Shown piece after piece: positions 3,235-62,020 of a DNA stretch of 64,000 nt. The stretch comes from Syntrophomonadaceae bacterium (GTDB lineage: Bacteria; Bacillota; Syntrophomonadia; Syntrophomonadales; Syntrophomonadaceae). Positions within the stretch are counted from its first letter, which is position 1, and each line of letters begins with the position of its first letter. The notes beneath the pieces were generated by a model that ran no database searches, had not been told where the DNA came from, and saw only the letters and a program-made list of their open reading frames with translations. The stretch covers positions 3,113-67,112 of the forward strand of contig JBEHWJ010000002.1 in assembly GCA_040217755.1 (NCBI GenBank). The letters run 5' to 3'. Made by a program: the position numbers and the translations under genes.

Positions 3235-3265
3235 TTAAAAAACCCTCGTCCCAGATAGGGACGAG
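3235..3265 (-). terminator. Intrinsic terminator of the leuS T-box leader
   Basis: Minus-strand RNA reads CUCGUCCC-UAUCU-GGGACGAG followed by UUUUUU. Its 5' arm is shared with the antiterminator. Confidence 0.85.
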
Positions 3266-3307
3266 AGTAATTTTCCCGCGGTGCCACCCATTTTGACAAG
3301 TATAATA

Positions 3308-3383
3308 TGGTGGAGCTAGTGGGATTCGAACCCACGGCCTCTTGAATGCCATTCAAGCGCGATCCCAACTTCGCCATAGCCCC
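3308..3383 (-). tRNA. tRNA-Ala (anticodon GGC), CCA encoded, embedded in the leuS leader
   Basis: Hand-folded 76-nt cloverleaf. Acceptor GGGGCTA/TAGCTCC with G3:U70; D arm GCGA-AGTTGGGA-TCGC; anticodon arm CTTGA-ATGGCAT-TCAAG; T arm GTGGG-TTCGAAT-CCCAC; A73 then CCA. Confidence 0.85.
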
Positions 3384-3562
3384 ACAACTTGACCACTCGT
3401 TATTGTAACGGTACAACCGCCCCAGGCTACTTGGTTCACCTGTGGTGCTCACCGGCGAGTTCGACAATATGCTTGCCACCTCCCACCATATGGTGACTCT
3501 CTGTCGAAGGATTGCCTACTACTCCGGTTCATCGCATGTTCTTTCTTCATTTGACAATTGCC

Positions 3563-6629: not shown

Positions 6630-6688
6630 GTCCAAGCGTACATACTAATCGCCCTCCCGACTTCATACCTTAAGGTAGGAGGGTTGAT

Positions 6689-8104
6689 ATGACGGCCAAT
6701 AACTTCTTACTGGGGGAAAAAGTCGGGCGTTTGATGGTAAGGCTCTCTCTGCCGGCCATATCGGGCATGATCATATTCTCCCTGTTCAGCCTGGTTGACA
6801 CCTTTTTTGTGGCCCAGTTGGGTATACAGGCTCTGGCGGCCGTCACCCTATGTGTGCCGATTGAAATACTGCTGGTCTCGGTAGGGTCGGCAACCGGAGT
6901 AGGGATCACTTCTCTTTTGTCACGCACCCTGGGCCGGGAAGACTATGCCCGGGCTGACAATATCGCCTGGCACGGCCTGATCATCTGTTTGTTGTACGGG
7001 CTTTTGTTCTCCTGGTTGGGCGTGGTCAATGTTGACCGCCTCTTGCAGCTGTTTGGATGCGCCCCGGAACTTTATAACCTGTGCCGCGACTACTTGAGCA
7101 TCATTCTGCTGGGCAGCCTTTTTACATTTATACCGATGACCTGCGGCAATATATTGCAGGGGGAGGGGAATACCTTCCTGCCGATGTATACTGCGCTGGC
7201 GGCCATAATCCTCAACGTCATACTGGACCCCCTGTTAATTTTCGGATGGGGCCCGGTGCCCTCCATGGGCCTGGCCGGTGCCGCCTGGGCCGATGTGGGT
7301 GCTGGGGCGTTTTGCTCGGTGATAGCTTTGGCTACCATGTACCGGTCCCGGGTCTACCTCTCCTGGTCAAGAAGTCATTTTCGTCCGGATATCCTGGTGT
7401 TGGTCGGAATCTACCAGGTCGGATTCCCGGCTTTGCTGATGGAATTGTTCAGCGTAGGGCTGCTGGTGTTTTTCAACAAAATCCTGATGGGATTCGGCAG
7501 TCTGGCCGTAGCCGTGATGGGAATATTCTCGAGGATAAGGTCGCTGTTTTATACCCCCGTGTTCGGATTGACCCAGGGTTCCATGCCCATAATCGGTTTT
7601 GCCTACGGTGCCGGTGATCATGACCGGGTCAAGGAAACCATAATCAAGTCGACCATCGGTTCCCTTATCTTTGTCACCGCCGGATGGCTGGTCATGCAAT
7701 TCAATTCCCAATGGTTGATGCAGTGGTTTACCTCCGACCCGGAGTTGATCGATGCCGGCATTTCCTGCATGCGCCTGGCTACCCTGTGCCTGCCGGTGAT
7801 GGGACCCATAATTATCCTGGGCAGTGTTTTGCAGGCCATGGGGCGGGGGGTCAGCGCCATGGTACTATCCGTGACCCGGCAGGCCATATTCTTCATCCCC
7901 TCGATATTGGTGCTGCCGTATTGGTGGGGTATAAACGGCATATGGGCGGCATTTTCGGTGGCAGAACTCTTGTCGGCCCTACTGGCCCTGGTATTCTTTG
8001 TCCGCCTCTGGCAGGGCCTTTACCCGGCCCGGCGCAGCCCAGGCCCCATGATTCTCACGCCCGGTAATCTGTTGAACCGGATTACTGCCTGGCTGAAGTG
8101 GTGA
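6689..8104 (+). CDS. MATE family efflux transporter
   Basis: 471 aa, about 12 TM segments, with a typical MATE N-terminus (LGEKVGRLMVRLSLPAISGMIIFSLFSLVDTFFV). Confidence 0.88.
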   Translation: MTANNFLLGEKVGRLMVRLSLPAISGMIIFSLFSLVDTFFVAQLGIQALAAVTLCVPIEILLVSVGSATGVGITSLLSRTLGREDYARADNIAWHGLIICLLYGLLFSWLGVVNVDRLLQLFGCAPELYNLCRDYLSIILLGSLFTFIPMTCGNILQGEGNTFLPMYTALAAIILNVILDPLLIFGWGPVPSMGLAGAAWADVGAGAFCSVIALATMYRSRVYLSWSRSHFRPDILVLVGIYQVGFPALLMELFSVGLLVFFNKILMGFGSLAVAVMGIFSRIRSLFYTPVFGLTQGSMPIIGFAYGAGDHDRVKETIIKSTIGSLIFVTAGWLVMQFNSQWLMQWFTSDPELIDAGISCMRLATLCLPVMGPIIILGSVLQAMGRGVSAMVLSVTRQAIFFIPSILVLPYWWGINGIWAAFSVAELLSALLALVFFVRLWQGLYPARRSPGPMILTPGNLLNRITAWLKW

Positions 8105-8196
8105 TGTACGGCCATGCCTGGCCCAGTATCCGATGTTGATGAACTTGGGGGCTCTGGTTTTACCCATCCGCTGGTTAACCTGTATAATAGATTAAT

Positions 8197-9213
8197 ATGG
8201 GTGATCCACTTGCTGCAGGTGAGGTGTTTGAGATAATGGATGGCAAAAAAACATATCTGTTATGGGGGCCGGAGGGTTACCTGATCAACCAAAAAATCGG
8301 GGAGATCGTAGCTGGATTGGCCGCCGCCGGGGAACCGCCGGAGGTGATAAATGTAGATGGCGATGAGACACCCCCCCAGGAACTGGGGCAGATACTGGAT
8401 TTCAGTCCGCTCTTTGCCATGACCCGGGTGATAATCATCAGGAATCCGAATTGGCTGGGCAAATCACCCCGCGGTGCCAAAAAAACCGAGGGGTACCGGC
8501 AGGTATTGGCGGATTACTTCCAGCGGGACTACCCCGGACAGACTTTGGTATTGACTGCCGGGGAAAACAACAGCGCCAACCCGATAACCAAGTTGCTGCA
8601 GAAGGAAGCCCGGGTCATCAATATCAAGCCGCTGACGGCTGCCGATCTGGAAAAATGGAGCCGCCGGGAACTGGAGAAGCGTCAGGTCAGGGTTGCTCCC
8701 GCAGCCTTGGCCAGGATCGCGGCCAGTGGGCAGGATATGTATTATCTGGAGAATATGTTTGAAAAGCTGTCCCTGATAAAACGGGAGGAATTATGGGGCG
8801 CGGCGGAAATCGATGAGCACCTGGACAGCCGCCAGGAGATAAGTGTTTTTAAACTCACCGATGCTTTACTTAATCGCAATGTCAGAACCTCGCTGGATGC
8901 TTTCCGCCAACTGACGGAGCAAGGGCAATCCCATTTCCTCATTCTGGCTATAATCATCCAACAATTTGTGGCCCTGAGCAAGGTAAAGTTCTGTATCGAG
9001 GGTGGTTACGACAGTGCCCGGATAGCTCAGGAGACCGGGTTGAAGGATTTCATGATCAGGAAGATGCGGGATAAAACCACCAGCTTCAGCAGTCAGGAAA
9101 TCCGCCGGGTTTTCGAAAGACTATTGGAAGCGGATACTACCTTCAAAAGCGAAAGCAAAGACCCGCGCGTCGTCATGGAAACCCTTCTGGTGGCCATCTG
9201 CAGCAGTGTATAA
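8197..9213 (+). CDS. holA: DNA polymerase III delta subunit
   Basis: 338 aa. Position after comEC matches Bacillus, with delta-like N-terminus YLLWGPEGYL. The start is ambiguous between 8197 and an SD-preceded ATG at 8236. Confidence 0.8.
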   Translation: MGDPLAAGEVFEIMDGKKTYLLWGPEGYLINQKIGEIVAGLAAAGEPPEVINVDGDETPPQELGQILDFSPLFAMTRVIIIRNPNWLGKSPRGAKKTEGYRQVLADYFQRDYPGQTLVLTAGENNSANPITKLLQKEARVINIKPLTAADLEKWSRRELEKRQVRVAPAALARIAASGQDMYYLENMFEKLSLIKREELWGAAEIDEHLDSRQEISVFKLTDALLNRNVRTSLDAFRQLTEQGQSHFLILAIIIQQFVALSKVKFCIEGGYDSARIAQETGLKDFMIRKMRDKTTSFSSQEIRRVFERLLEADTTFKSESKDPRVVMETLLVAICSSV

Positions 9214-9235
9214 AACAGGCCCCCTTACAACAAAA

Positions 9236-9259
9236 AAACCTGCTCCGACGAGCAGGTTT
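9236..9259. terminator. Bidirectional terminator hairpin between holA and rpsT
   Basis: AAACCTGCTC-cgac-GAGCAGGTTT, flanked by an A-run and a T-rich tract. Confidence 0.65.
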
Positions 9260-9281
9260 AATTATAATCCCTCATTATCTC

Positions 9282-9548
9282 TTATTTTACGATGGCGTTG
9301 AATTTCTTGGTCAGCCGCGACTTTTTCCGGGCGGCGTTATTTTTGTGCAATATTCCCTTGGATACGCTTTTATCTATCAGGGAGGTTGCCTGCAACAGTT
9401 TATCCCTGCTTGCATCCATATCATCACCAGCCAAAGACAGTTCGAATCCCTTGATGCTGGTCTTCAGAGAACTCTTGTAAGCCTTGTTTCTGACCCTGGC
9501 TTTTTCCGCGTTCCTGGCCCTCTTGGCAGGAGTCTTGCTTTTTGCCAC
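9282..9548 (-). CDS. rpsT: 30S ribosomal protein S20
   Basis: 88 aa (VAKSKTPAKRARNAEKARVRNKAYKSS...). The start is adjusted to the GTG 5 nt downstream of AAGGAGGTGA. The ORF-track start at 9614 would include the SD. Confidence 0.92.
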   Translation of the reverse strand: MAKSKTPAKRARNAEKARVRNKAYKSSLKTSIKGFELSLAGDDMDASRDKLLQATSLIDKSVSKGILHKNNAARKKSRLTKKFNAIVK

Positions 9549-11525: not shown

Positions 11526-13349
11526 ATGGAGGTTGCCCAATTGCAGGAGCGGATAAGAAATTTCAGCATCATCGCCCATATCGACCACGGCAAATCGACC
11601 CTGGCCGATCGTTTGCTGCAGATCACCGGTGCCTTGAGTGCCCGGGAGATGCGGGAACAGTTTCTGGACAAGATGGATCTGGAGCGGGAAAAGGGGATCA
11701 CCATCAAACTACAGCCCGTCCGCCTCAACTATACGGCCCGAAACGGACAAACCTATATACTCAATCTTATCGATACCCCCGGGCATGTGGATTTTGCCTA
11801 CGAGGTGTCCAGGAGCCTGGCCGCTTGTGAAGGTGCATTGCTGGTGGTGGACGCGTCACAGGGGATAGAAGCCCAAACCCTGGCCAATGTATATATGGCC
11901 ATGGATATGAACCTGGAGATAATCGGGGTGGTCAATAAAATAGACCTGCCCGGCGCCGAACCGGAAGTAGTCAAGCAGGAGATGGAAGATGTACTGGGAC
12001 TGGATAAGGCCGATATCATACCCATCTCGGCCAAATTAGGCATCGGGATCGAGGATGTCCTCGAGGCCATCGTGGAAAAAATACCGTCTCCCAAGGGTGA
12101 TCCGGCCGGAGAGCTGCGGGCTTTGATATTCGACTCCTATTTCGATTCCTACAAGGGAGCGATATCTTACATCCGGGTGGATGCGGGGGAATTACACAAG
12201 GGTGATATGATCCGGATGATGTCCAGCGGCAAGGATTTTGAGGTTACCGAAATAGGGGTACTATCGCCCTTCATGACCACGGTGGAGAGCCTGAAGGCGG
12301 GGGAGGTCGGTTATCTGGCGGCCGCCATCAAGAATGTGACCGACACCAAGGTGGGCGATACCATCACCAGTTCGGAAAGACCGGCCCGGCAGCCGCTGGA
12401 AGGTTATCAGGAGGTCAAGCCCGTGGTCTTCTGCGGTTTATATCCGCTGGAGAACAACGATTTTGAGAGGCTGCGGGATGCCCTGGAGAAGTTGAAATTG
12501 AATGATTCATCGCTGGTATATGAACCGGAGTCTTCCGATGCATTGGGATTGGGATTCCGGTGTGGTTTTTTGGGGTTGTTGCATTTGGAGATCGTCAAGG
12601 AAAGATTGGAGCGGGAGTATGACCTGACCCTGATGGCCACTGCCCCCAGCGTCATCTATCGCTTGATCCTCACTGACGGAACCGAGATATCGGTCCGCAA
12701 TCCCAGCCGCTGGCCGGATCCGCAGCGGATCGACAAGGTTATGGAGCCTTATGCCAAGGCGTCCATAATGGTTCCCAATGATTATGTCGGTACCGTGATG
12801 GAGCTATGCCAGGAGAAACGGGGTCAATTCATAAACATGGAGTACCTGACTCCGCACCGGGTGGTAATAAGCTATAGTCTCCCCCTGGCCGAGATACTGG
12901 TGGACTTTTTTGATGGACTGAAATCGAGAACCCGGGGATACGCGTCCTTGGATTACGATATACGCGGATATGAGGTATCGGATCTGGTGAAACTGGATAT
13001 CATGTTGAACGGGGAAACGGTCGATGCGCTGAGCACCATATGCCATAAGGACAAGGCCTATTACCGGGCCCGGGCTCTGGTGGAGAGGCTGCGCCGGATA
13101 ATCCCCCGGCAGCTTTACGAGGTGGTCATCCAGTCCTCCATAGGCAACCGGGTTATTGCCCGGGAATCTGTAAAGGCCATGCGCAAGGATGTATTGGCCA
13201 AATGCTATGGCGGGGATATAACCCGCAAGAAAAAACTTCTGGAGAAACAAAAGGAAGGCAAAAAACGCATGAAGCAGATCGGCCGGGTGGAAGTCCCTCG
13301 TGATGCCTTCATGTCGGTAATGGAAATAGACGGTGATAAAAAATCTTGA
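11526..13349 (+). CDS. lepA: Elongation factor 4 (LepA)
   Basis: 607 aa with GTPase motifs [15 protein letters not shown] and DTPGHVDF, and a LepA C-terminal domain. Confidence 0.97.
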
Positions 13350-13353
13350 TTCC

Positions 13354-14484
13354 ATGGGGATATATCTACACATCCCGTTCTGCCTGCGGAAATGCAGCTA
13401 CTGCGATTTCTACTCCGTCCCCCGGGCCGATACTGAGCTTCTCGATCGATATACCAGCTGCCTGGTCCAGGAACTGACCCTGCGGGCTGCGGAATGGCGA
13501 CTCCCGGTTGCCAGCATCTACTTTGGCGGAGGCACCCCCAGCCTGCTGGCTCCCCAGCACATAGAAAAAATATTGGCTGTCATATACGAACTCTACCGTC
13601 CGGAGGATGCCGCGGAGATCACGGTTGAGGTGAATCCGGCTACCATCAGCCGGCCGGGTTTGGAAGACCTGCGCCAGGCAGGGGTCAATCGCCTGTCGAT
13701 CGGCGTGCAGAGTTTTATCGATCGGGAACTGAACATCCTGGGCCGGATACATGACAGCCAGCAGGCCGGACAGTGCCTTAATTGGTCTCATCAAGCCGGT
13801 TTTGCCAATGTCAACGTGGATTTGATCTATGGGATACCCGGGCAAAATTGGGATGACTGGCGGACCAACCTGAATCAGGCGATGGATTATGCTCCGCAGC
13901 ATATTTCAACCTATCTGTTACAACTGGAAGCCGGTGTGCCGTTGGCCCGCCGGGTCGCTGCGGGAACCCTGGCCATGTTGACAGATGAAGAGGAGGCAGA
14001 CCTGTACTATCGGGGCCGTGATTGCTTGCTGGAAGCCGGTTACGTTCACTATGAATTATCCAATTATGCCCGGAAGGGCTGGCAATGCCGGCATAATATA
14101 GGCTACTGGGGGGTGGGCGCCTACCTGGGCGTCGGAGTGGGGGCGGTCAGTTTCGACGGACGGCAGCGCCGCCTGAATAGCCCTCCCCTGGAAGAATACC
14201 TGACCGCCCTGTCAGGGGCGGCCCGACCGCATCAGCAGATACTCGAAACCATGGGCCATCGCGAGCAACTGGCGGAAGCTATGGTGATGGGACTGCGGCA
14301 GGTGGCCGGGATTGACAGGAGCACCCTTTGCCGTCGCTTCGGAGCGGATGCCTGGGCGGATTATCAAACGACCATCGACCGCCTGGTATCCCGGGACCTG
14401 TTGGTAGTCAATGACGACCGCGTCTATCTGTCACCCCGGGCATATTTCATCTCCAATGCCGTTCTGAGCGAGTTTTTGGATTGA
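13354..14484 (+). CDS. hemW: Radical SAM heme chaperone HemW (HemN-like, oxygen-independent coproporphyrinogen oxidase family)
   Basis: Radical SAM motif CxxxCxxC (YLHIPFCLRKCSYCDF). The start is adjusted to the ATG at 13354, just after the lepA stop. Confidence 0.9.
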   Translation: MGIYLHIPFCLRKCSYCDFYSVPRADTELLDRYTSCLVQELTLRAAEWRLPVASIYFGGGTPSLLAPQHIEKILAVIYELYRPEDAAEITVEVNPATISRPGLEDLRQAGVNRLSIGVQSFIDRELNILGRIHDSQQAGQCLNWSHQAGFANVNVDLIYGIPGQNWDDWRTNLNQAMDYAPQHISTYLLQLEAGVPLARRVAAGTLAMLTDEEEADLYYRGRDCLLEAGYVHYELSNYARKGWQCRHNIGYWGVGAYLGVGVGAVSFDGRQRRLNSPPLEEYLTALSGAARPHQQILETMGHREQLAEAMVMGLRQVAGIDRSTLCRRFGADAWADYQTTIDRLVSRDLLVVNDDRVYLSPRAYFISNAVLSEFLD

Positions 14485-14493
14485 TACTATGGC

Positions 14494-14522
14494 TTGACAA
14501 GCGATGGTGCAAATGCTATTTT
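14494..14522 (+). promoter_or_regulatory. Sigma-A type promoter of the hrcA heat-shock operon
   Basis: TTGACA (14494-14499), 17 nt, TATTTT, with TG two nt upstream of the -10. Confidence 0.6.
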
Positions 14523-14535
14523 TTAAGAAACCGGC

Positions 14536-14562
14536 TTAGCACTCGATGCGGGAGAGTGCTAA
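14536..14562 (+). promoter_or_regulatory. CIRCE operator (HrcA binding site)
   Basis: Perfect consensus TTAGCACTC-N9-GAGTGCTAA, between the promoter and hrcA. Confidence 0.92.
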
Positions 14563-14578
14563 CAGATTGGGTGAGATT

Positions 14579-15610
14579 ATGCCATTGACGGATAGGCAGA
14601 GACGAATACTGGAGTCGATAATAAAAGACTATGTTTCCACGGCTGAACCGGTTGGTTCCAGAGCGATGGTCAAAAAGCACGGTCTCAATATCAGTGCTGC
14701 CACCGTCAGGAATGAGATGGCCGATCTGGAGGAGATGGGTTACCTGGAGCAACCCCACACTTCGGCGGGCAGGATTCCATCCGAAAAGGGGTTTCGTTAT
14801 TATGTCGACTTCATGATGGAAAACGAAACGCCCAGCGCCGAACAGATGGGTCTGCTCCATCAGGCCCTGGACGACCGGATGCAGGAATGGAATGACTTAG
14901 TCCAGCGGGTTGGATATTTCTTATCCCAGGTGACCAATTATGCCTCGTTTATTATCGTACCATCGGTAAAATTGAGCCAATTTCACAACCTGCAGATCAT
15001 CCCCATCCAGGAAGGGCAGGCTATTGTGCTGGTGGTAACCGACATCGGCATAATACTGCACCGCCGCATCTCGATTCCGCCTTCCATGCATCCCGATGAA
15101 CTTAAGATGATAGGCGACCTGTTCAACCGGGCTTTGAGAGGCAAGAACCTCCATGAGATCAAAAGAGGTGATCTGATGGTCCTGCGCGATGAGATAAAGA
15201 ACCGGCGCAAGGTTATCGACAAAGCCCTGGAGGCTATAGATACTTTGCTGGACCACTCCCAGGATGACCGGGTCGTGATCACCGGCGCCTTAAATATAAT
15301 CAAAGAACCGGAGTTCAAGGATCTGGATAAGTTGCGCAAGGTGCTCACCATATTTGAAGAGGATGGGCAGATCAAAGATATATTGCCGGACCAGATCAGT
15401 GAAGAAGTCGATATCAGGATCGGCAAAGAGAACAAATTGGAGGATATCAGGGAGATGAGCCTGGTTTTTGCCGGCTATAAAACGGCCGGCGAGATGGGCA
15501 AGATGGGGGTAATCGGTCCGGTGCGGATGGAGTATTGGAAAGCAGCCGGTACGGTGGAATCAGTCAGCCGTATTATCGATGAAATTGTAAACCGCTGGGG
15601 ACTGAAGTAG
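14579..15610 (+). CDS. hrcA: Heat-inducible transcription repressor HrcA
   Basis: 343 aa from the ATG at 14579 (MPLTDRQRRILESIIKDYVSTAEPVGS). The ORF-track start at 14546 lies inside CIRCE. Confidence 0.93.
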   Translation: MPLTDRQRRILESIIKDYVSTAEPVGSRAMVKKHGLNISAATVRNEMADLEEMGYLEQPHTSAGRIPSEKGFRYYVDFMMENETPSAEQMGLLHQALDDRMQEWNDLVQRVGYFLSQVTNYASFIIVPSVKLSQFHNLQIIPIQEGQAIVLVVTDIGIILHRRISIPPSMHPDELKMIGDLFNRALRGKNLHEIKRGDLMVLRDEIKNRRKVIDKALEAIDTLLDHSQDDRVVITGALNIIKEPEFKDLDKLRKVLTIFEEDGQIKDILPDQISEEVDIRIGKENKLEDIREMSLVFAGYKTAGEMGKMGVIGPVRMEYWKAAGTVESVSRIIDEIVNRWGLK

Positions 15611-15644
15611 AATCCCGGTCGCCGTCCCGCAGCAAGGAGATATC

Positions 15645-17201
15645 ATGTCCGATAACAGTATCCATAAAGGCGAAATAGACGAGAAGACCCAAGCCCTGTT
15701 GAGCAACGCCAACGCTGCCCGTTTACTTGCCCAGACCATAGAGGGTACCATTGGACCCAAGGGTTTGGACATAATGATGGTCGGAAACCTTGGCGATGTA
15801 GTGATCAGCAACGACGGGGTCACTATATTAAAACTGATGGCGGTTAATCACCCTGCAGCCAGGATGATCATTAACGCTGCCCGGGCCCAGCAGGAACGGG
15901 TTGGGGATGGCACTACCACTGCCACCATCCTGGCAGGGACACTGGTGGCGGAGGGCGCCAACCAGGTTATGAAAGGGGTACCGGTCACCCAGGTAATCGA
16001 GGGGATCAAGCTGGGCGTGGAATGGAGCGTGCAATTAATCGAACAGCACAACCGCAGCGTCGCTTCAGTTGATGATCCAATCCTGTTCAACGTAGCAGTC
16101 ACCGCCGGCCGGGATCAAAGGGATATCGCCGGTCTGGTGCTGGAAGGGGCCAGGATTGTCGGGCGCCAAAAACTGCTGGACCCGGATTACAGGTTCTGTG
16201 ATGCGGTGGTAGCCAGGGAAGGTGCCGTCAGTCAGGTATTTATGGGGACGGTCGTTAACCGCTCCCCCCTCAATAAAGATATGCCCAGGATTTTGGAGGG
16301 TGCCAGGATACTGGTTCTGGATGATGCCCTGGCACCAGAGGACATAGATAATGAATCCAGGCATACCGAAGCAGGTTTTCTGCATTATCTGGAGAACAAG
16401 AAACGCTATGAAGGCAATTTACGCAAGATATGCGCGATGGGCGTAAATATGGTGTTGGCGGACCGCAGTATCGACGATATCGGCGAACAGATCTTCACCG
16501 AAGCCCACATAATGGCGGTCCAAAGGGTATCGCGGCGAGAACTCGATACATTATGCAAGCACACCGGGGCCCGGAAATTAAAGAGGAACGGCCTCAGCCT
16601 CCCTGAAGAGCAGCTAAACGGCTATCTGGGCCGTGCCGCCCGGGTCCAGGCAGATGATAAATTGGGCAGTATATCGGTGCGGGAAGGCGGCGGCTTGCCC
16701 CAGGCCACAGTCCTGGTGGGAGCCGCGACCGAAGAAGTTGCCGGTGAAAAGGAACGTATCGCCCGTGATGCAGCCGCAGCCGTACAGGCGGCGCTCCAAA
16801 AAGGCATCGTCCCCGGCGGCGGGGCCATAGAAGTGTGGACCGCCAGGCAGTTGGATAGGCTGGCTGGCGAAGTGAAAGGGATGGCGGCTTACGGGGTGCA
16901 AGCTGTAAAAGAAGCGCTCTTGCGTCCTTTCGCATGCATAGCTGCCAATGCCGGCTTTAATCCCTTGGAGAAGATAAGCCAGGTGATAGCCGAACAAAAT
17001 CAAAACGAATCGAACAGCATAACGCTTGATTGCGACGATGGCAGTATGATCGACGCTTTTTCATGTGGCATCGTCGACCCGTCCCTGATCAAGATACACG
17101 CATTGAAGACGGCCGGGGAAGTCGCCGCCGCGATTTTAAGAATCAATACCATAATCAAAATGAAAGATGGGGAATGTAATACACAGGATTCGGTAGAATA
17201 G
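15645..17201 (+). CDS. Archaeal-type (group II-like, TCP-1/thermosome family) chaperonin
   Basis: 518 aa with thermosome-like motifs GPKGLDIMMV, NDGVTILK and VGDGTTTATILAG. There is no GroEL signature, and it sits between hrcA and grpE. Confidence 0.85.
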   Translation: MSDNSIHKGEIDEKTQALLSNANAARLLAQTIEGTIGPKGLDIMMVGNLGDVVISNDGVTILKLMAVNHPAARMIINAARAQQERVGDGTTTATILAGTLVAEGANQVMKGVPVTQVIEGIKLGVEWSVQLIEQHNRSVASVDDPILFNVAVTAGRDQRDIAGLVLEGARIVGRQKLLDPDYRFCDAVVAREGAVSQVFMGTVVNRSPLNKDMPRILEGARILVLDDALAPEDIDNESRHTEAGFLHYLENKKRYEGNLRKICAMGVNMVLADRSIDDIGEQIFTEAHIMAVQRVSRRELDTLCKHTGARKLKRNGLSLPEEQLNGYLGRAARVQADDKLGSISVREGGGLPQATVLVGAATEEVAGEKERIARDAAAAVQAALQKGIVPGGGAIEVWTARQLDRLAGEVKGMAAYGVQAVKEALLRPFACIAANAGFNPLEKISQVIAEQNQNESNSITLDCDDGSMIDAFSCGIVDPSLIKIHALKTAGEVAAAILRINTIIKMKDGECNTQDSVE

Positions 17202-44913: not shown

Positions 44914-44988
44914 TCCTCGATAGCTCAACGGTAGAGCATCCGGCTGTTAACCGGAGGGTTGTAGGTTCGAATCCTACTCGGGGAGCCA
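44914..44988 (+). tRNA. tRNA-Asn (GTT)
   Basis: 75-nt cloverleaf with anticodon loop CTGTTAA, G73 discriminator and encoded CCA. Confidence 0.9.
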
Positions 44989-44999
44989 TGAAAAAAACA

Positions 45000-45029
45000 G
45001 CGGTAAACGGTTAATTTACCGCTTTTTTT
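45000..45029 (+). terminator. Intrinsic terminator after tRNA-Asn
   Basis: GCGGTAAA-cggttaa-TTTACCGC followed by TTTTTTT. Confidence 0.75.
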
Positions 45030-45068
45030 ATTGCCGTACTACACTCATCAGTATTTGTTTTCTGACTA

Positions 45069-45097
45069 TTGCTTTTTGCATACATATTATATATACT
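45069..45097 (+). promoter_or_regulatory. Candidate promoter of the three-tRNA unit
   Basis: TTGCTT, 17 nt, TATACT. Confidence 0.5.
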
Positions 45098-45125
45098 AAC
45101 TCTTGCGGGGTTTTTAGAGACCTCC

Positions 45126-45201
45126 GGGCCTATAGCTCAGTTGGTAGAGCTACCGGCTCATAACCGGTTGGTCCCAGGTTCGAATCCTGGTAGGCCCACC
45201 A
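45126..45201 (+). tRNA. tRNA with CAT anticodon (elongator type; resembles lysidine-dependent tRNA-Ile2 more than the initiator)
   Basis: 76-nt cloverleaf with paired G1:C72 (so not an initiator), anticodon loop CTCATAA and encoded CCA. Met versus Ile2 cannot be decided by eye. Confidence 0.88.
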
Positions 45202-45205
45202 TCAT

Positions 45206-45281
45206 GGCCCCTTGGTCAAGCGGTCTAAGACACCGCCCTTTCACGGCGGTAACGGGGGTTCGAGTCCCCCAGGGGTCACCA
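45206..45281 (+). tRNA. tRNA-Glu (TTC)
   Basis: 76 nt with anticodon loop CTTTCAC. Close to Bacillus tRNA-Glu, with encoded CCA. Confidence 0.9.
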
Positions 45282-45357
<76 letters not shown>

Positions 45358-57470: not shown

Positions 57471-57550
57471 AAAGGCAAACTCGTTGAAAGACGAAGACGC
57501 AAAGCCACGGGTCTAAGGACAGCAATGTCTATGACAGCCGGGTTGCCTGG
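57471..57550 (+). promoter_or_regulatory. c-di-GMP-I (GEMM-I) riboswitch aptamer, plus arm, copy 1
   Basis: GGCAAAC...UGAAAG...GACGCAAAGCCACGGGUCUAAGG...AGCCGGGUUGCC matches the GEMM-I core as I remember it from Vc2. Confidence 0.85.
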
Positions 57551-57571
57551 AGCAGATATAGTATTATCCGA

Positions 57572-57605
57572 CCTGCCAGCAACTCGCTGAGCAGGTTTTG
57601 TTTTT
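57572..57605 (+). terminator. Intrinsic terminator (expression platform of copy 1)
   Basis: CCTGCCAGC-aactc-GCTGAGCAGG followed by TTTTGTTTTT. Confidence 0.75.
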
Positions 57606-57649
57606 AATTGAATAATTCAGGACGGCGGGGCCAAGAGCCCCTCACCGAT

Positions 57650-57730
57650 AATAGCAAACCTGTCGAAAGGCGGGGACGCAAAGCCACGGGTCTAAGGACG
57701 ATTGGTCTACGATAGCCGGGTTGCCGAAGG
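57650..57730 (+). promoter_or_regulatory. c-di-GMP-I (GEMM-I) riboswitch aptamer, plus arm, copy 2
   Basis: AGCAAACCUGUCGAAAGGCGGGGACGCAAAGCCACGGGUCUAAGGACG...AGCCGGGUUGCCGAAGG. A T-run lies at 57746-57751, but I could not resolve a clean terminator stem. Confidence 0.88.
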
Positions 57731-57791
57731 AGGATCTGGTACCTGCCTTTTTTCTTGCGGGCCGTCCAGTTATGAAAGGGGTTAAGGCTCA

Positions 57792-58781
57792 ATGTTGGCC
57801 GGCAGGAAACGCCTAGGATTATACATCGCGCTCATAGTTACCTTGATTCTTACCCAAACGCCTATGGTCGCGGCAGAAAGCAACCATCCCAGTTTAACGC
57901 CGGATCACCATTCTGGTCTAGCGAACAGCGACTATTACATTCTCCAAAACAATGTGGTAATCGAGAATTCAGGTTCGGAACCAGCCACCAGGGTGAGGTT
58001 GGAGGTGCCCTTGATGGCAGACCTGGATTCACCTTACCAGGATGTGGTGAAAGAAGAGTTTTCGCCCCAACCTACCGAGATAAGAAAAATGGGCGACGGC
58101 ACCCGTACCGGGGTATTCAGTTTCGAAGACATCGCTCCCGGTACATGTACTGTTCTGACACAAAAATATACGGTCAGGTTAGACGGGAGCAACTGGCTTA
58201 ATAATGGCGGCGGCGAGATTCTGATTGACCCCCGGGCATATTTAGGACCGGCTGCCAAAATAGAATGCGCCGACCCCCGCATCCAGGCTGTGGCGCTACG
58301 CATCAATCCCAATGGCGACATCGATGATCTTGGTGTGGCCCAGAAAGCCTTTGAATTCACCCGCAGCACGCTGACTTACAACTCGTATTCTCCATCTGCC
58401 AACCAGGGAGCATTGGCGGGTTTGCAGGCCGGGAGCGGATGTTGTGAAGAATACGCATCATTGTTCGTGGCCGTGTGCCGGGCTTCAGGAATTCCAGCCC
58501 GGATAGTGAACGGGTATGCCAATGACCGAGACGAGTTGGCCGAGGATGAGACGCTGATAAATATGACTGGCCGCCGGCATCAGTGGGCCGAATTCTACCT
58601 GGATGGTAAGGGATGGATCCCCGTTGATCCCACCCTATCCATTGATATGCGCCCGGTATTCGGGCAACTCCCGACCGGATGTTATGTGGCAGAGAACTAT
58701 GGTGACCGGCAGGTCACTGGTAAATACCGCGGCGGTAAACTGGCGATTCAGTTCCAGGACCAAGTAGCCCGAGGATATTAA
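57792..58781 (+). CDS. Secreted transglutaminase-like (papain-fold Cys-His-Asp) enzyme
   Basis: Signal peptide MLAGRKRLGLYIALIVTLILTQTPMVAAES. Core motifs are GCCEEYASLFVAVCRASGIPARIVNGY, HQWAEFY and WIPVDPT. Confidence 0.88.
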   Translation: MLAGRKRLGLYIALIVTLILTQTPMVAAESNHPSLTPDHHSGLANSDYYILQNNVVIENSGSEPATRVRLEVPLMADLDSPYQDVVKEEFSPQPTEIRKMGDGTRTGVFSFEDIAPGTCTVLTQKYTVRLDGSNWLNNGGGEILIDPRAYLGPAAKIECADPRIQAVALRINPNGDIDDLGVAQKAFEFTRSTLTYNSYSPSANQGALAGLQAGSGCCEEYASLFVAVCRASGIPARIVNGYANDRDELAEDETLINMTGRRHQWAEFYLDGKGWIPVDPTLSIDMRPVFGQLPTGCYVAENYGDRQVTGKYRGGKLAIQFQDQVARGY

Positions 58782-58819
58782 GTCGGAATAAATGTCAAGA
58801 TTACGGAGGTGTTGAATTA

Positions 58820-59572
58820 ATGAAGAGAAGAATCCTGGTCACGTCCATTGTCGTATTCCTGACTGCGATAACCCTCATCAATGTCGAGCCGGCAGGGATT
58901 ACGGCAGAAGAAAAGGCGATTACCGCCATGCAGGATGTCATTACATCGCCGGAACCGCAGCCGGCAGCAAATCAATCGACAGCTTTTGATGCTGCCGCCG
59001 CTCCCCAGGCCGAGGCCAAAGCACCCGACCAAACTGTACCGACTCGGCCAGTCGCTGCAACAGATATCGAGTCGAAGATATCTCCGGAAGGTAACATCCA
59101 AACCGAAGCAACCACCAGTCCACCCAAATCCAGCCCCAGTAAAGAAACCAAACAACCGCCGACGGTTCAGCCGCCTGCCACCGCAACCACCTCAGCCACT
59201 GCCCAGCAGAAGGAAATGTTGGGATACATCAATGCCGCGCGGGCCCAGGCCAACCTTGCCCCCCTGGTCCTGGACAGCAAGCTTTGCAACGGAGCCTATT
59301 TAAAATCCCAGGACATGGCCGTGAACGGGTATTTCAGTCATACTTCCCCTACATACGGCACTCCCTTTGAAATGATGAGAAGTATTGGCATTACCTATCG
59401 GACAGCCGGGGAGAATATTGCCAGGAACCATAGCGTTTTGGCAGCATATAATGCTTTCATGAATTCCAGTGGTCATCGGGCCAACATCCTTAACCCGGCA
59501 TTCAACAAAATAGGGTTAGGGTTCTATCAGCGGGGCAGCGATCTGTTTGTAACCCAATGGTTCACCAATTAA
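58820..59572 (+). CDS. Secreted CAP/SCP/PR-1 domain protein (YkwD-like) with Pro/Thr/Ala/Gln-rich linker
   Basis: Signal peptide, a low-complexity linker, then CAP motifs GYFSHTSP, GENIA and SSGHRANILNP. Confidence 0.85.
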   Translation: MKRRILVTSIVVFLTAITLINVEPAGITAEEKAITAMQDVITSPEPQPAANQSTAFDAAAAPQAEAKAPDQTVPTRPVAATDIESKISPEGNIQTEATTSPPKSSPSKETKQPPTVQPPATATTSATAQQKEMLGYINAARAQANLAPLVLDSKLCNGAYLKSQDMAVNGYFSHTSPTYGTPFEMMRSIGITYRTAGENIARNHSVLAAYNAFMNSSGHRANILNPAFNKIGLGFYQRGSDLFVTQWFTN

Positions 59573-59609
59573 GCCATGCCTTCTTCTTGACTAAATACAG
59601 TAGGCGTGA

Positions 59610-59638
59610 GAAAAGCAGAGCTGTGAGCCCTGCTTTTC
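59610..59638. terminator. Hairpin between the convergent operons
   Basis: GAAAAGCAG-(11 nt)-CTGCTTTTC, a perfect 9-bp stem. The A and T tracts lie inside the stem, so it could act in both directions. Confidence 0.45.
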
Positions 59639-59703
59639 ATAATTCCCGGATATTTACGATAATGGATACTAAAAACCCAAAATGTGGCTGGGCATCTCGA
59701 GAC

Positions 59704-60324
59704 TCACTCAGTTTGGCGGGCCCGCACAATCAGTCTCTGCGTCACATTGCCAGGGGGGTCGCAAGTGGTTAAGGTCAGGGCCCGGTAATTAGTGGGTGCT
59801 ACCACCGACCAATCGTTCTCCGCCACGATGTAAACCTTTTCTACTGAGTACTCATAGTCTCTGCCCTGGTAGGATATGCTTATCCTGTCCCCGGGTTCCA
59901 ACCGGTTAAGATACCGGAACCAGGAACCAAATACATTGCGGTGACCAGCAATGGCGACGTTGCCTTTATCACCGGGCAAGGCGCTGTCAGGATATAAGCC
60001 GGGCCCCATACTAAGATCCCGGGAGGTAACTCCTTGAACTACTGCAGTTTTTAGATTTAATTTGGGGATGCTTAAAACCATTACCGCCTTTATAGTTGGC
60101 TTGGATTGTGCGGCAGGAGTCGGGCCAGGGGTTATCGCATTTGATGCCGTCGGTAAGCCTGCAACCCCAGTTCCGCTCGTCTCTTCAGGGGTTTGAGGAT
60201 ACGCCTGTTCAACGGCTTCCAACAGTTGACGCTGCATATATATGCTATATCCATTCTTAATAAGGGGGCTCAGGATCAACAATAATCCCCCTATAATCAT
60301 CACCCAACTGAAAACCCGGCGCAC
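59704..60324 (-). CDS. Sortase family transpeptidase (membrane-anchored)
   Basis: Catalytic His (IAGHRN), TLxTC motif (LTLTTCDP) and Arg (RLIVRA). The start is adjusted to the GTG at 60324, 5 nt after AAAGGGGUGA, giving MRRVFSW followed by a TM segment. The frame is open from 60357. Confidence 0.87.
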   Translation of the reverse strand: MRRVFSWVMIIGGLLLILSPLIKNGYSIYMQRQLLEAVEQAYPQTPEETSGTGVAGLPTASNAITPGPTPAAQSKPTIKAVMVLSIPKLNLKTAVVQGVTSRDLSMGPGLYPDSALPGDKGNVAIAGHRNVFGSWFRYLNRLEPGDRISISYQGRDYEYSVEKVYIVAENDWSVVAPTNYRALTLTTCDPPGNVTQRLIVRARQTE

Positions 60325-60348
60325 CCGGTCACCCCTTTTCTTATAGAA

Positions 60349-60374
60349 AGAGACCACCCTGGAGGGTGGTCTCT
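60349..60374 (-). promoter_or_regulatory. Intercistronic perfect hairpin between the poly-Asp gene and the sortase
   Basis: RNA reads AGAGACCACCCU-CC-AGGGUGGUCUCU followed by UUCUAUAAG: 12 complementary nt on each side. Confidence 0.55.
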
Positions 60375-60410
60375 ACAACATACTAACATTCTTCAGGGAT
60401 ATATGTCAGG

Positions 60411-61502
<1,092 letters not shown>

Positions 61503-61595
61503 CCTAAACACCTCCTTTTCATTAAGTTGCACCTGTCCAGCTGCTACTGGTTATTTGCCATATCACCACCTTAAATAATTTACCGGTTATTCGAT

Positions 61596-61631
61596 TAAAA
61601 AAACCTGATGGGGTATATACCCCAGCAGGTC
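61596..61631 (-). terminator. Intrinsic terminator (expression platform of the proximal minus-arm riboswitch)
   Basis: RNA reads ACCUGCUGGGG-UAUAUA-CCCCAUCAGGU followed by UUUUUUU. Confidence 0.8.
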
Positions 61632-61644
61632 GATAAATCCTCTA

Positions 61645-61727
61645 TTTCGGCAACCAGGCTGTCATAGACTAATCGTCCTTAGACCCTTGGCTTTGCGTCC
61701 CCGCCTTTCGGCGGGTTTGCCTTTGTC
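61645..61727 (-). promoter_or_regulatory. c-di-GMP-I (GEMM-I) riboswitch aptamer, minus arm, proximal copy
   Basis: RNA reads GGCAAACCCGCCGAAAGGCGGGGACGCAAAGCCAAGGGUCUAAGGACG...AGCCUGGUUGCCGAAAU. Confidence 0.88.
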
Positions 61728-61837
61728 GGTGAGGGCTTACAGCCCTGCATCAGAATAAGGAACTAAATGTAAACAGTCTACCTTATACATATATATACGA
61801 ACTCGGAAACAGATAACCGTGGCAAAAATGTTATTAA

Positions 61838-61866
61838 AAAAAAATACTTAGCCGAATGCTAAGCAG
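61838..61866 (-). terminator. Intrinsic terminator (expression platform of the distal minus-arm riboswitch)
   Basis: RNA reads UGCUUAGC-AUUCG-GCUAAGUA followed by UUUUUUUUU. Confidence 0.65.
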
Positions 61867-61881
61867 GTGTTTCTGTCTGCT

Positions 61882-61960
61882 CTCTGCAACCCGGCGGTCA
61901 TGACCTTGCGGCGTTAGACCCGTAGCTTTGCGTCCCCGCTTTTCAACGGTTTTGCCCTTA
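61882..61960 (-). promoter_or_regulatory. c-di-GMP-I (GEMM-I) riboswitch aptamer, minus arm, distal copy
   Basis: RNA reads GGGCAAAACCGUUGAAAAGCGGGGACGCAAAGCUACGGGUCUAACG...CCGCCGGGUUGCAGAG. Confidence 0.82.
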
Positions 61961-61991
61961 AGAGAAAATCGATTGCAATTATCTTATGCTT

Positions 61992-62020
61992 ATTCTATGC
62001 AATTTATCTTGGGATTACAA
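61992..62020 (-). promoter_or_regulatory. Candidate sigma-A promoter of the riboswitch / poly-Asp / sortase transcript
   Basis: Minus strand reads TTGTAA (62015-62020), 17 nt, TAGAAT (61992-61997), about 30 nt upstream of the distal aptamer. Confidence 0.55.

Follow-up and report, generated by a model that had tools for sequence, protein, structure and literature searches.

Two convergent operons in an inherited slot

A surface-protein locus in an uncultured Syntrophomonadaceae bacterium, represented by a metagenome-assembled genome (MAG), consists of two convergent operons, each preceded by two class-I aptamers for cyclic di-guanosine monophosphate (c-di-GMP). The locus lies between folD and a metallophosphoesterase gene in a 64,000-nucleotide stretch of contig JBEHWJ010000002.1 (assembly GCA_040217755.1), referred to here as the window. 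Its enzyme arm, on the plus strand, encodes a secreted protein of the transglutaminase fold and a CAP-domain protein. Its anchor arm, on the minus strand, encodes a wall-anchored LPQTG protein with a long polyaspartate stalk and a sortase. A sequence-only reading of this block had described two GEMM-I aptamers per arm and four products that are all exported or membrane-bound, and both descriptions hold. Rfam covariance models match in all four places at their gathering thresholds (35 bits for RF01051, GEMM-I), each aptamer has an expression platform of its own, and the four open reading frames (ORFs) score above the cut-offs of PF01841, PF00188, PF04203 and TIGR01167. The block is very probably a surface module controlled by c-di-GMP riboswitches.

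The aptamers are designated W+1 and W+2 in the enzyme arm and W-1 and W-2 in the anchor arm. Each arm carries two complete units, with a terminator or a U-run after each, and thus has a tandem riboswitch arrangement. The promoter ahead of the first anchor-arm unit is conserved and no conserved promoter (-35/-10) was found in the spacers between riboswitch units, so each arm is taken as one leader; an internal promoter splitting the two anchor-arm units was rejected on the same grounds. Terminator-like hairpins are enriched in the block, where a consensus scan found 13 against 4.3 expected.

Relatives of this organism, compared here through MAGs and metagenome contigs and designated by L numbers, hold the block at the same place. 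At least four related lineages (L014, L096, L009 and L094/L098) have it in the folD-to-metallophosphoesterase slot, and the metallophosphoesterase bordering the slot in the relatives is a membrane protein. All four genes are found in the slot in L014/L007, where the enzyme is 74% identical, and in L096. The sortase gene is absent from the slot in L009/L016 and the CAP gene from that in L015. L094/L095 and L098 have kept the CAP gene, the sortase gene and two enzyme-arm aptamers, and the enzyme and LPXTG genes are gone. A C-terminal enzyme remnant of 72 residues persists in L098, a 3' remnant of the LPXTG gene is present in both L094/L095 and L098, and the two share a single deletion junction.

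Because relatives hold the block at the same place, the locus is old, vertically inherited and modular, and it is not an insertion. Horizontal transfer of an island is ruled out by the conserved slot and by the flat GC content (0.50 in the block, 0.52 in the window). The earlier description of a block unrelated to its surroundings therefore does not stand, and the synteny that it called Bacillus-like is that of the Syntrophomonadaceae. About 6 kb past the metallophosphoesterase gene, L094 (1-263) and L098 (1-1389) encode a PAS-domain protein with an HD-GYP-type domain (PF13487), possibly a c-di-GMP phosphodiesterase; the window ends sooner.

Features of the locus (window coordinates; hairpin and duplex energies in kcal/mol)
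Feature	Position	Strand	Evidence or remarks
W+1, c-di-GMP-I aptamer, first enzyme-arm unit; G20, A47, C92	57464..57550	+	RF01051 85.6 bits; own model 93.6 bits
W+1 intrinsic terminator, ACCUGCCAGC...GCUGAGCAGGU and U-run	57571..57606	+	hairpin -15.5
W+2 5' flank: GGACGGC outer-helix strand and hairpin H0 (GGGGC/GCCCC)	57620..57641	+	sequence; H0 -10.0
W+2, c-di-GMP-I aptamer nearest the enzyme gene; A20 (nt 57653), A47, C92	57643..57728	+	Rfam 83.7 bits
W+2 expression platform: P1-extension GGAGG, CCUGCC, U6 (57748-57753), GCCGUCC	57729..57767	+	duplex energies
Secreted transglutaminase-fold protein, 329 aa: signal peptide, beta-sandwich, core with Cys218-His263-Asp279	57792..58781	+	PF01841 86.9 bits, 1.3e-24
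CAP/SCP-domain YkwD-like protein, 250 aa: N-terminal hydrophobic segment, Pro/Thr/Ala-rich linker	58820..59572	+	PF00188 1e-18
Terminator-like hairpin right after the sortase stop, at the operon convergence point	59676..59701	-	consensus scan
Sortase, 217 aa: membrane anchor; AGHRN, TLTTC and RLIVRA motifs	59704..60357	-	PF04203 3.3e-32, 111.3 bits (cut-off 26.6)
LPQTG protein ORF	60411-61532	-	likely true start ATG 61502 behind AAGGAGG
Wall-anchored protein: signal peptide, ~130-aa N-terminal domain, D145 stalk, VQGIKDEP linker, LPQTG, hydrophobic segment, RRK	60411..61502	-	
Run of 145 Asp codons (82 GAC, 63 GAT)	60582..61016	-	nested 9/33/75-nt GAY periodicity
W-2 terminator, CCUGCUGGGGUA...UACCCCAUCAGG and U7	61597..61630	-	-18.2; in alifold consensus
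W-2 conserved linker AUAGAGGAUUUAUCGA	61631..61644	-	with the first terminator bases, pairs with the whole 5' flank (closing helix P0)
W-2, c-di-GMP-I aptamer; G20, A47, C92	61645..61730	-	RF03167 78.8 bits; own model 102.6 bits
W-2 hairpin H0 (GCAGGGC UGUAA GCCCU)	61732..61748	-	5' arm matches terminator 5' arm; 3' arm overlaps P1 extension
W-1 terminator, UGCUUAGC AUUCG GCUAAGUA and U9	61836..61865	-	consensus scan, hairpin fold
W-1, c-di-GMP-I aptamer, first anchor-arm unit; G20, A47, C92	61882..61966	-	Rfam 72.0 bits
Promoter-like TTGTAA-17-TAGAAT, ending 25 nt ahead of W-1	61992..62020	-	hexamers and distance the same in L014 and L096

The encoded proteins and their co-occurrence

The enzyme scores far above the 23-bit cut-off of PF01841, and its triad is well kept among 23 aligned homologs, all of which have C218 and H263 and at least 90% of which have D279. 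An AlphaFold2 (AF2) model, with a predicted local distance difference test (pLDDT) score of 87.7, comprises the signal peptide, the beta-sandwich and the core. Foldseek matches this model to 3isr, an uncharacterised putative cysteine protease from Cytophaga, to Pseudomonas aeruginosa TgpA and to animal transglutaminases; weaker matches are LapG (rank 30) and the pseudomurein endoisopeptidase PeiP (rank 42). Among solved structures the best sequence match is TgpA, which is deposited as a protein-glutamine gamma-glutamyltransferase. Pfam reports PF01841 alone and does not place the enzyme in the LapG/BTLCP family, to which its relation is one of analogy. The enzyme is presumed to be a peptidase or an isopeptidase most likely.

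Enzymes of this family are closely associated with the aptamer. Eighty enzyme loci from species-representative genomes were searched with a covariance model built from 14 aptamers. An aptamer is located upstream in 45 of the 46 Firmicute loci of the family that have enough upstream sequence, singly in 21, doubly in 23 and as a triplet in one, and in none of 29 loci with more distant transglutaminase-like genes (Calditrichia, Cytophagia and others). The family thus appears to be an almost obligate target of class-I c-di-GMP aptamers. Likewise, a 2025 survey tabulates an enrichment of double (94%) and triple (6%) c-di-GMP-I arrangements for COG1305 transglutaminase-like enzymes of Bacillota (PMC12452182). 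The CAP protein encoded downstream scores 68.7 bits with PF00188 (cut-off 21.1) and 150.5 bits with the YkwD model TIGR02909, under the cut-off of 171.

The anchor-arm protein carries a sorting signal at its C terminus, LPQTG-ANNLPSIMSGLMMIAGGMLV-RRK, which TIGR01167 recognizes at 22.7 against a cut-off of 15.9 and PF00746 scores at 16.5, under its cut-off of 20. The length of the polyaspartate run is known from a single assembly, and short-read contigs of the same organism break at this run. ORFs in other frames across the tract, encoding poly-Ser, poly-Ile/Val and poly-Thr/Met (60403-61155, plus strand; 60489-61115, plus strand; 60461-61030, minus strand), were rejected as genes and are by-products of the GAY repeat. 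The N-terminal domain has no Pfam match, and its family is unnamed. A word-indexed search found one homolog of this domain and an exhaustive phmmer search 37, with the signature ...GGL.DPVVWHF(V/I)LN...QHFY(I/V)GT...LVLSHV. An AF2 model of the domain, built on a two-sequence alignment, reached a pLDDT of 39, and no fold was assigned.

In the homologs, this domain forms the N terminus of LPXTG or LP(F/Y)TG proteins whose acidic stalks vary from E-rich to EPPGE, PVDPED, D-rich and EPEP sequences. Stalks also differ within the near clade of the window: D145 in the window itself, D17 in L096, (DDDN)n in L014, (DDDS/C/N)n in L001, (TD)n in L015 and (DDDSDS)n in L009/L016, where low-complexity sequence takes the place of the N-terminal domain. 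Stalk charge, the anchor and a short [IV]-K-[DN]-E-P linker just ahead of the anchor are the conserved features. On the strength of the stalk chemistry, a role in cation bridging, in the binding of minerals or partner cells, or in electrostatic spacing can be conjectured. Two distant members of the family likewise have a connection to c-di-GMP-I aptamers. A pair of these precedes the gene in L100, and in L101, where a sortase gene lies 1 kb from the acidic-family gene, an aptamer precedes the gene located between them. The sortase of the window is nearest to classes E and D and falls under every class cut-off (108.5 against 160 for the class E model NF033747; 92-104 for class D), while an identical protein is named class E by NCBI.

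In the near clade, the enzyme and the acidic LPXTG protein are both present in all six enzyme-carrying loci, and they were lost together in the L094/L098 lineage. Treating these losses as independent events had to be abandoned because L094 and L098 share one deletion junction; the co-loss counts as a single event, and the functional link it suggests between the enzyme and the acidic protein is accordingly weak. Among the 49 loci with enough downstream sequence, counted without regard to phylogeny, a sortase gene is convergent with the enzyme gene in seven (the window, L014, L015, L011, L018, L027 and L030; 38-74% enzyme identity), and these sortases have different LPXTG substrates alongside. 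A CAP gene adjoins the enzyme gene in four of the 49. The four genes are therefore not always found as a set. At the L011 locus (43% identity), two very large LPFTG proteins made of repeated Ig-like modules are encoded on either side of the enzyme gene (4495-9516 and 12497-15892, both on the minus strand; 1673 and 1131 aa). A sortase and a Big_9 protein are also encoded there, and only the enzyme gene has an aptamer.

Three leader architectures and their predicted polarity

All four aptamers of the window carry a GAAA loop, a GNRA tetraloop, on P2. Positions are numbered from the consensus of the GGC variant, in which A47 is the first A after CGC and G20 precedes the G-C pair that opens P2. 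The top-scoring model for W-2 is the GGC variant RF03167, a member of the same clan, which reaches its score through other model columns. That variant is defined by G in place of A47 (consensus CGCGAA instead of CGCAAA). In W-2, GACGCAAAGCC gives A at position 47, and a GGC variant with an altered ligand is thereby ruled out; because this position is canonical, W-2 is an ordinary class-I aptamer.

Position 20 is more variable. Among the window aptamers, only W+2 (AAUAGCAAACC, nt 57653) has the GEMM-Ib signature, A20 with C92 kept. Units homologous to W+2 have A20 in L014, L094 and L098 and G20 in L096, L015 and L009, and the first anchor-arm unit has A20 in L014, L009 and L096 and G20 in the window. 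The A20 aptamers of the relatives lie at 6853-6938 and 11399-11483 in L014, 13945-14030 in L009, 6401-6485 in L096, 9820-9905 in L094 and 9968-10053 in L098. In the Vc2 aptamer, the G20A substitution weakens c-di-GMP binding from the picomolar range to 53 nM and allows cyclic GMP-AMP (cGAMP) to be bound at 120 nM; bispecificity is also known for a natural aptamer with A20, from Clostridium beijerinckii (PMC6140456). The toggling between G and A in close relatives looks like tuning of affinity or threshold, and a second ligand for the A20 units is possible. Aptamers on the anchor arm are confined to the near clade, with two in the window and three each in L014, L096 and L009.

Three architectures follow these aptamers. 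Type A comprises W+1, W-1 and the first units of other loci, in which a stand-alone terminator lies 12-20 nt past the aptamer. The 5' arm and the conserved loop (GGCAAC) of this terminator are complementary to the aptamer 3' strand GGUUGCC together with the linker AGCAG, and this alternative pairing constitutes an antiterminator. Across nine homologous units, 92% of terminator positions and 90.7% of antiterminator positions are paired, compared with 19-52% in controls whose registers were slid by 1-3 columns. When W-1 is folded without constraint, the antiterminator is favoured by 5.5 kcal/mol over aptamer plus terminator. In the first enzyme-arm unit, a ligand-bound aptamer would withhold the antiterminator strand and let the stand-alone terminator form (OFF), and the first anchor-arm unit has the same predicted OFF design. 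Type A units are therefore likely to be OFF switches, in keeping with the uniformly OFF class-I units of Clostridioides difficile (PMC6200980).

Type B, the architecture of W+2, has no stand-alone terminator hairpin after the aptamer; instead, its U6 run is preceded by a long-range closing helix. CCUGCC closes onto the upstream GGCGGG, and GCCGUCC pairs with GGACGGC. Four segments alternate: a (GGCGGGG), b (GCCCCUC), c (GGAGG) and d (CCUGCC, followed by U6). Pairing of a with b gives the local hairpin H0 (-10 kcal/mol), whose 3' arm overlaps the 5' strand of the P1 extension. Pairing of b with c extends P1 and covaries among lineages (CCUC/GAGG, CUUC/GAAG, CCCGU/ACGGG, CCUG/CAGG). Pairing of a with d closes the whole unit beside the U-run at -11 to -21 kcal/mol, with G-U, A-U and G-C pairs exchanged among lineages, whereas the local c:d hairpin reaches only -3.4 to -7.7 kcal/mol. 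In W+2 itself the closing duplex is worth -13.2 kcal/mol against -3.4 for the local hairpin, with an ensemble pairing probability of 0.8; the hairpin GGAGG...CCUGCC was judged too weak to be the terminator. The 5'-flank element is conserved in L014, L015, L009, L011 and L096. At distal loci, a P1 extension of at least 4 bp is found at 66 of 73 aptamers, compared with 12% in the control, and a U-rich run immediately follows 49 of the 73. The ligand would close the long P1 extension and place a stable helix against the U6 run. On balance, type B is read as OFF, with the ligand-closed helix as terminator stem and H0 as antiterminator.

A further arrangement is seen at distal enzyme-family loci (L017-L065 and L086). 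A conserved GUCGGUC past the aptamer and U-run complements GACCGAC in the 5' flank. Directly next to this segment, a strong hairpin (GUCCCUC...GAGGGAC) sequesters the Shine-Dalgarno sequence immediately ahead of the start codon, as in L018 (1613-1720) and L029 (5886-5990). This suggests a second, translational layer of control at those loci.

Type B', represented by W-2 and by the second and third anchor-arm units elsewhere, shares H0 and the P1 extension with type B, but here a full terminator (-18 kcal/mol) begins with segment d. The linker plus d can pair with the whole 5' flank (a, b and the H0 loop), at -15.9 kcal/mol in the window and -23.5 in L009; the resulting closing helix is termed P0. 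Before the 3' arm of the terminator has been made, P0 is the minimum free energy (MFE) partner of the 5' arm in four of five units folded without constraint and in all five when the aptamer is enforced. Across seven units, 84% of P0 is paired, compared with 35-45% in slid controls. An outer helix UCCUUAUU/AAUAGAGGA in the fold of the window's W-2 is absent from orthologs and was taken as chance. In the second anchor-arm unit, the ligand-closed helix would swallow the 5' arm of the downstream terminator (ON), and type B' is on these grounds predicted, on balance, to be an ON switch. L100, an independent acidic-LPXTG homolog, has two units of classical ON layout in which the terminator 5' arms are the aptamer 3' strand, an architecture that fits induction of the acidic LPXTG family by c-di-GMP.

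A reciprocal model and its rivals

Together, these features suggest a vertically inherited surface module with a tandem c-di-GMP-I pair on each arm, acting on termination, and arms with their own predicted polarities; we give this full model an even chance. Two OFF units in series would make the enzyme arm a sharp low-pass filter, with the enzyme and the CAP protein produced only at low c-di-GMP. On the anchor arm an OFF unit, often in the lower-affinity A20 form, followed by an ON unit would allow expression at intermediate c-di-GMP or set two thresholds. An acidic, cation-binding brush would be placed on the wall in the c-di-GMP-positive state; as c-di-GMP falls, the transglutaminase-fold enzyme and its CAP partner would act on surface material, either remodelling or releasing it. 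By analogy, we infer that this reciprocal logic, built here from a single aptamer class, matches that of ZmpI in C. difficile and LapG in Pseudomonas. It is rather doubtful that the acidic LPXTG protein is itself the enzyme's substrate. Doubtful to a greater degree is a more specific version, in which the anchor leader is a band-pass made up of an OFF unit of lower affinity (with A20 in three of the four lineages) in series with one or two ON units of high affinity, the enzyme arm is a two-stage low-pass, and the enzyme strips or cross-links the brush at the K-D/N-E-P linker as c-di-GMP falls. If true, it would be the first same-ligand OFF+ON tandem riboswitch and a Gram-positive, RNA-controlled counterpart of LapG/LapA release.

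Several observations weigh against the reciprocal model. Unit polarity is predicted from folding logic, and we know of no precedent for OFF and ON units for the same ligand in one leader. P0 shows only one compensatory pair because the sequences are from close relatives; within the near clade they diverge too little for strong covariation statistics. The W-2 terminator is about 14 kcal/mol more stable than P0 at equilibrium, so that an ON response of W-2 would require kinetic control. The four segments of W+2 also fit a classical ON switch, with the P1 3' strand as 5' arm of a weak hairpin ahead of U6, and ensemble predictions for the enzyme-proximal unit disagree between near-identical orthologs. 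The enzyme fold suits transamidases and peptidases alike and does not tell them apart. The shared loss of enzyme and acidic protein comes from one lineage with one deletion junction, and the enzyme has no neighbouring sortase at 42 of 49 loci, so its substrate need not be a neighbour.

Two alternatives assign one polarity to the whole locus. All four units could be OFF, which would make the module a planktonic coat of low c-di-GMP with the polyanionic stalk as an anti-adhesive, repulsive layer. Same-ligand tandem units normally share polarity (PMC12452182), and the uniformly OFF class-I units of C. difficile include one ahead of a calcium-binding putative adhesin (PMC6200980). Moreover, the consensus fold of second anchor-arm units contains both aptamer and terminator, and the terminator is present in full-length MFE structures. 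However, no antiterminator that would become free in the ligand-free state was found for W-2-type units; the 5' flank is the sole conserved partner of their terminator 5' arm, and closure of P1 frees this flank. In addition, the distant homolog L100 has a clear ON architecture. Co-repression of both arms is thus considered unlikely. Conversely, c-di-GMP could induce both arms, the enzyme then being a transglutaminase that cross-links the brush or matrix into place as a biofilm forms. The class-I ON switches Bc3-5 and Bc2 precede anchored surface proteins (PMC4759541), the enzyme-proximal unit is readable as a classical ON switch (P1 3' strand GGAGG with CCUGCC before U6), and TgpA, the top sequence match among solved structures, was deposited as a transferase. 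This all-ON scheme is very improbable: the first unit of each arm has a well-separated terminator and a conserved antiterminator from the aptamer 3' strand, which is an OFF design, the local hairpin it requires in W+2 amounts to only -3.4 kcal/mol, and in distal loci it is the closing helix that directly precedes the U-run.

Other alternatives concern the partnership of the arms and the identity of the ligand. Both operons may belong independently to a large Syntrophomonadaceae c-di-GMP regulon, with the enzyme acting on another target such as peptidoglycan, matrix proteins or the wall of a partner methanogen. The many enzyme loci without a neighbouring sortase, the 45 of 49 without a neighbouring CAP gene, the weak structural match to PeiP and the occurrence of the same aptamer class ahead of other surface and biofilm genes (Tad-type ATPases, TasA/SipW-type proteins and kinases) all favour such independence, but the convergent enzyme-sortase layout recurs in seven loci with enzyme identities from 38% to 74%, and in the near clade the enzyme and acidic protein are jointly present or jointly absent. 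Mere neighbourhood is possible, though somewhat unlikely. Alternatively, the A20 units (W+2 and the first anchor-arm unit of L014, L009 and L096) could sense 3',3'-cGAMP, so that each leader would integrate two cyclic dinucleotides. The GEMM-Ib signature and the cGAMP binding of Vc2 G20A and of the bispecific C. beijerinckii aptamer speak for this. Since G and A toggle between homologous units of close relatives, which suits affinity tuning better than a change of ligand, and G20A retains c-di-GMP binding at 53 nM (PMC6140456), two-signal logic appears quite improbable. The reciprocal model, with c-di-GMP as the ligand of both arms, is retained as the working account. Should its polarities prove wrong, the locus would still be a clean new case of tandem c-di-GMP control of surface genes, without the surprise.

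The same aptamer class is also located ahead of other genes in related Syntrophomonadaceae and Bacillota loci. These encode CpaF/T2SSE-type ATPases with long acidic C-terminal extensions, receiver-domain proteins with acidic tails, TasA/SipW-type secreted proteins and sensor kinases (L021 9207-12215, L035 1828-4638, L026 5937-8230, L045 7651-9248, L048 7976-9725, L056 3376-4199, L050 4415-5142 and L019 3603-5582). Such varied targets point to a large riboswitch-based c-di-GMP regulon. Elsewhere in the window, a T-box leader (3254-3541, minus strand) ahead of leuS (726-3206, minus strand) contains a complete tRNA-Ala(GGC) at 3308-3383 (minus strand; Rfam 66.2 bits, also found by ARAGORN), located in the long insertion that separates stem III from the antiterminator. 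It is unusual for a T-box leader to enclose a tRNA gene. Four clustered tRNA genes lie at 44914-45354 (plus strand).

Relation to known surface systems

The finding of one transglutaminase-fold family behind a c-di-GMP riboswitch in nearly every Firmicute locus points to a role for it in the switch between attached and free-living states of syntrophs that aggregate with methanogens. The anchor arm defines a sortase-anchored family with a fast-evolving, hyper-acidic stalk of 17-145 Asp or of DDDN, DDDSDS, TD or EP repeats, suited to cation bridging, mineral binding or electrostatic spacing. The leaders display three architectures on one aptamer, one with a ligand-closed helix as its predicted terminator stem and another that may form an OFF+ON series.

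The staphylococcal Sdr and Clf proteins have a similar plan, with an N-terminal functional domain, a long acidic Ser-Asp stalk that projects through the wall, and an LPXTG anchor. The resemblance extends to the (DDDSDS)n stalk of the L009 ortholog, but the N-terminal domain of the protein described here is unrelated and its stalk is pure Asp. To our knowledge, Sdr proteins are neither under riboswitch control nor tied to a dedicated sortase.

A close functional precedent, already named in the sequence-only reading and fair as such, is the C. difficile system in which the sortase-anchored proteins CD2831 and CD3246 and the secreted enzyme ZmpI (PPEP-1) are controlled by c-di-GMP riboswitches acting on termination (PMC6200980; Peltier et al. 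2015, cited therein). There, the class-I units acted as OFF switches, and production of the release protease ZmpI is repressed through them (PMC6200980); the enzyme arm described here is predicted to be under class-I OFF control as well, and both hosts are Clostridia. In contrast, the C. difficile system has class-II ON switches on its adhesins, a single riboswitch per leader, an M34 Pro-Pro metalloprotease and a collagen-binding adhesin, whereas this locus has four class-I units in tandem pairs, a transglutaminase-fold Cys-His-Asp enzyme with a CAP partner, a module-encoded sortase and an acidic low-complexity stalk. No M34 metalloprotease is encoded at the locus, and the pre-anchor linker, which reads VQGIKDEPAVGP, has no match to the Pro-Pro motif. 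The likeness to the PPEP circuit is thus a functional analogy only.

Bacillus thuringiensis offers a second parallel, as class-I units precede genes for wall-anchored proteins in Bc3-5/cspABCDE and Bc2/cap/cbpA (PMC4759541, PMC4933901). Bc3-5 is a triple tandem of complete units, each with its own terminator, and triple tandems are also found in L009, L014 and L096. The Bc units, however, are near-identical and all ON, unlike the three architectures with differing predicted polarity seen here, and the Bacillus operon is without the transglutaminase-like and CAP genes present in this locus. LapG of the LapD-LapG-LapA system of Pseudomonas fluorescens is a transglutaminase-like Cys-His-Asp protease that targets a surface adhesin at low c-di-GMP, when action of the present enzyme is predicted too (PMC3032545). 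LapG, however, is a periplasmic BTLCP-family protease controlled post-translationally by the receptor LapD, whereas the enzyme described here has transcriptional riboswitch control, a Gram-positive-type host, an N-terminal beta-sandwich and membership in PF01841.

The earlier statement that no described system has this combination was too strong. Tandem class-I c-di-GMP riboswitches, riboswitch-run sortase substrates, as in C. difficile and B. thuringiensis (PMC6200980, PMC4759541), and a statistical tie to transglutaminase-like genes are already known. The last is the COG1305 entry of the 2025 survey, reproduced here at 45 of 46 loci (23 double, one triple), which is a statistical table entry only, without the platform anatomy, the link to a sortase and an acidic LPXTG protein, or a functional proposal (PMC12452182). 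What stands as new, judged against the searchable literature, is the hyper-acidic LPXTG family paired with a module-encoded sortase and the placement of riboswitches on both convergent arms. The predicted use of a closing helix as terminator and the probable mixing of polarities within one leader are likewise new by that measure.

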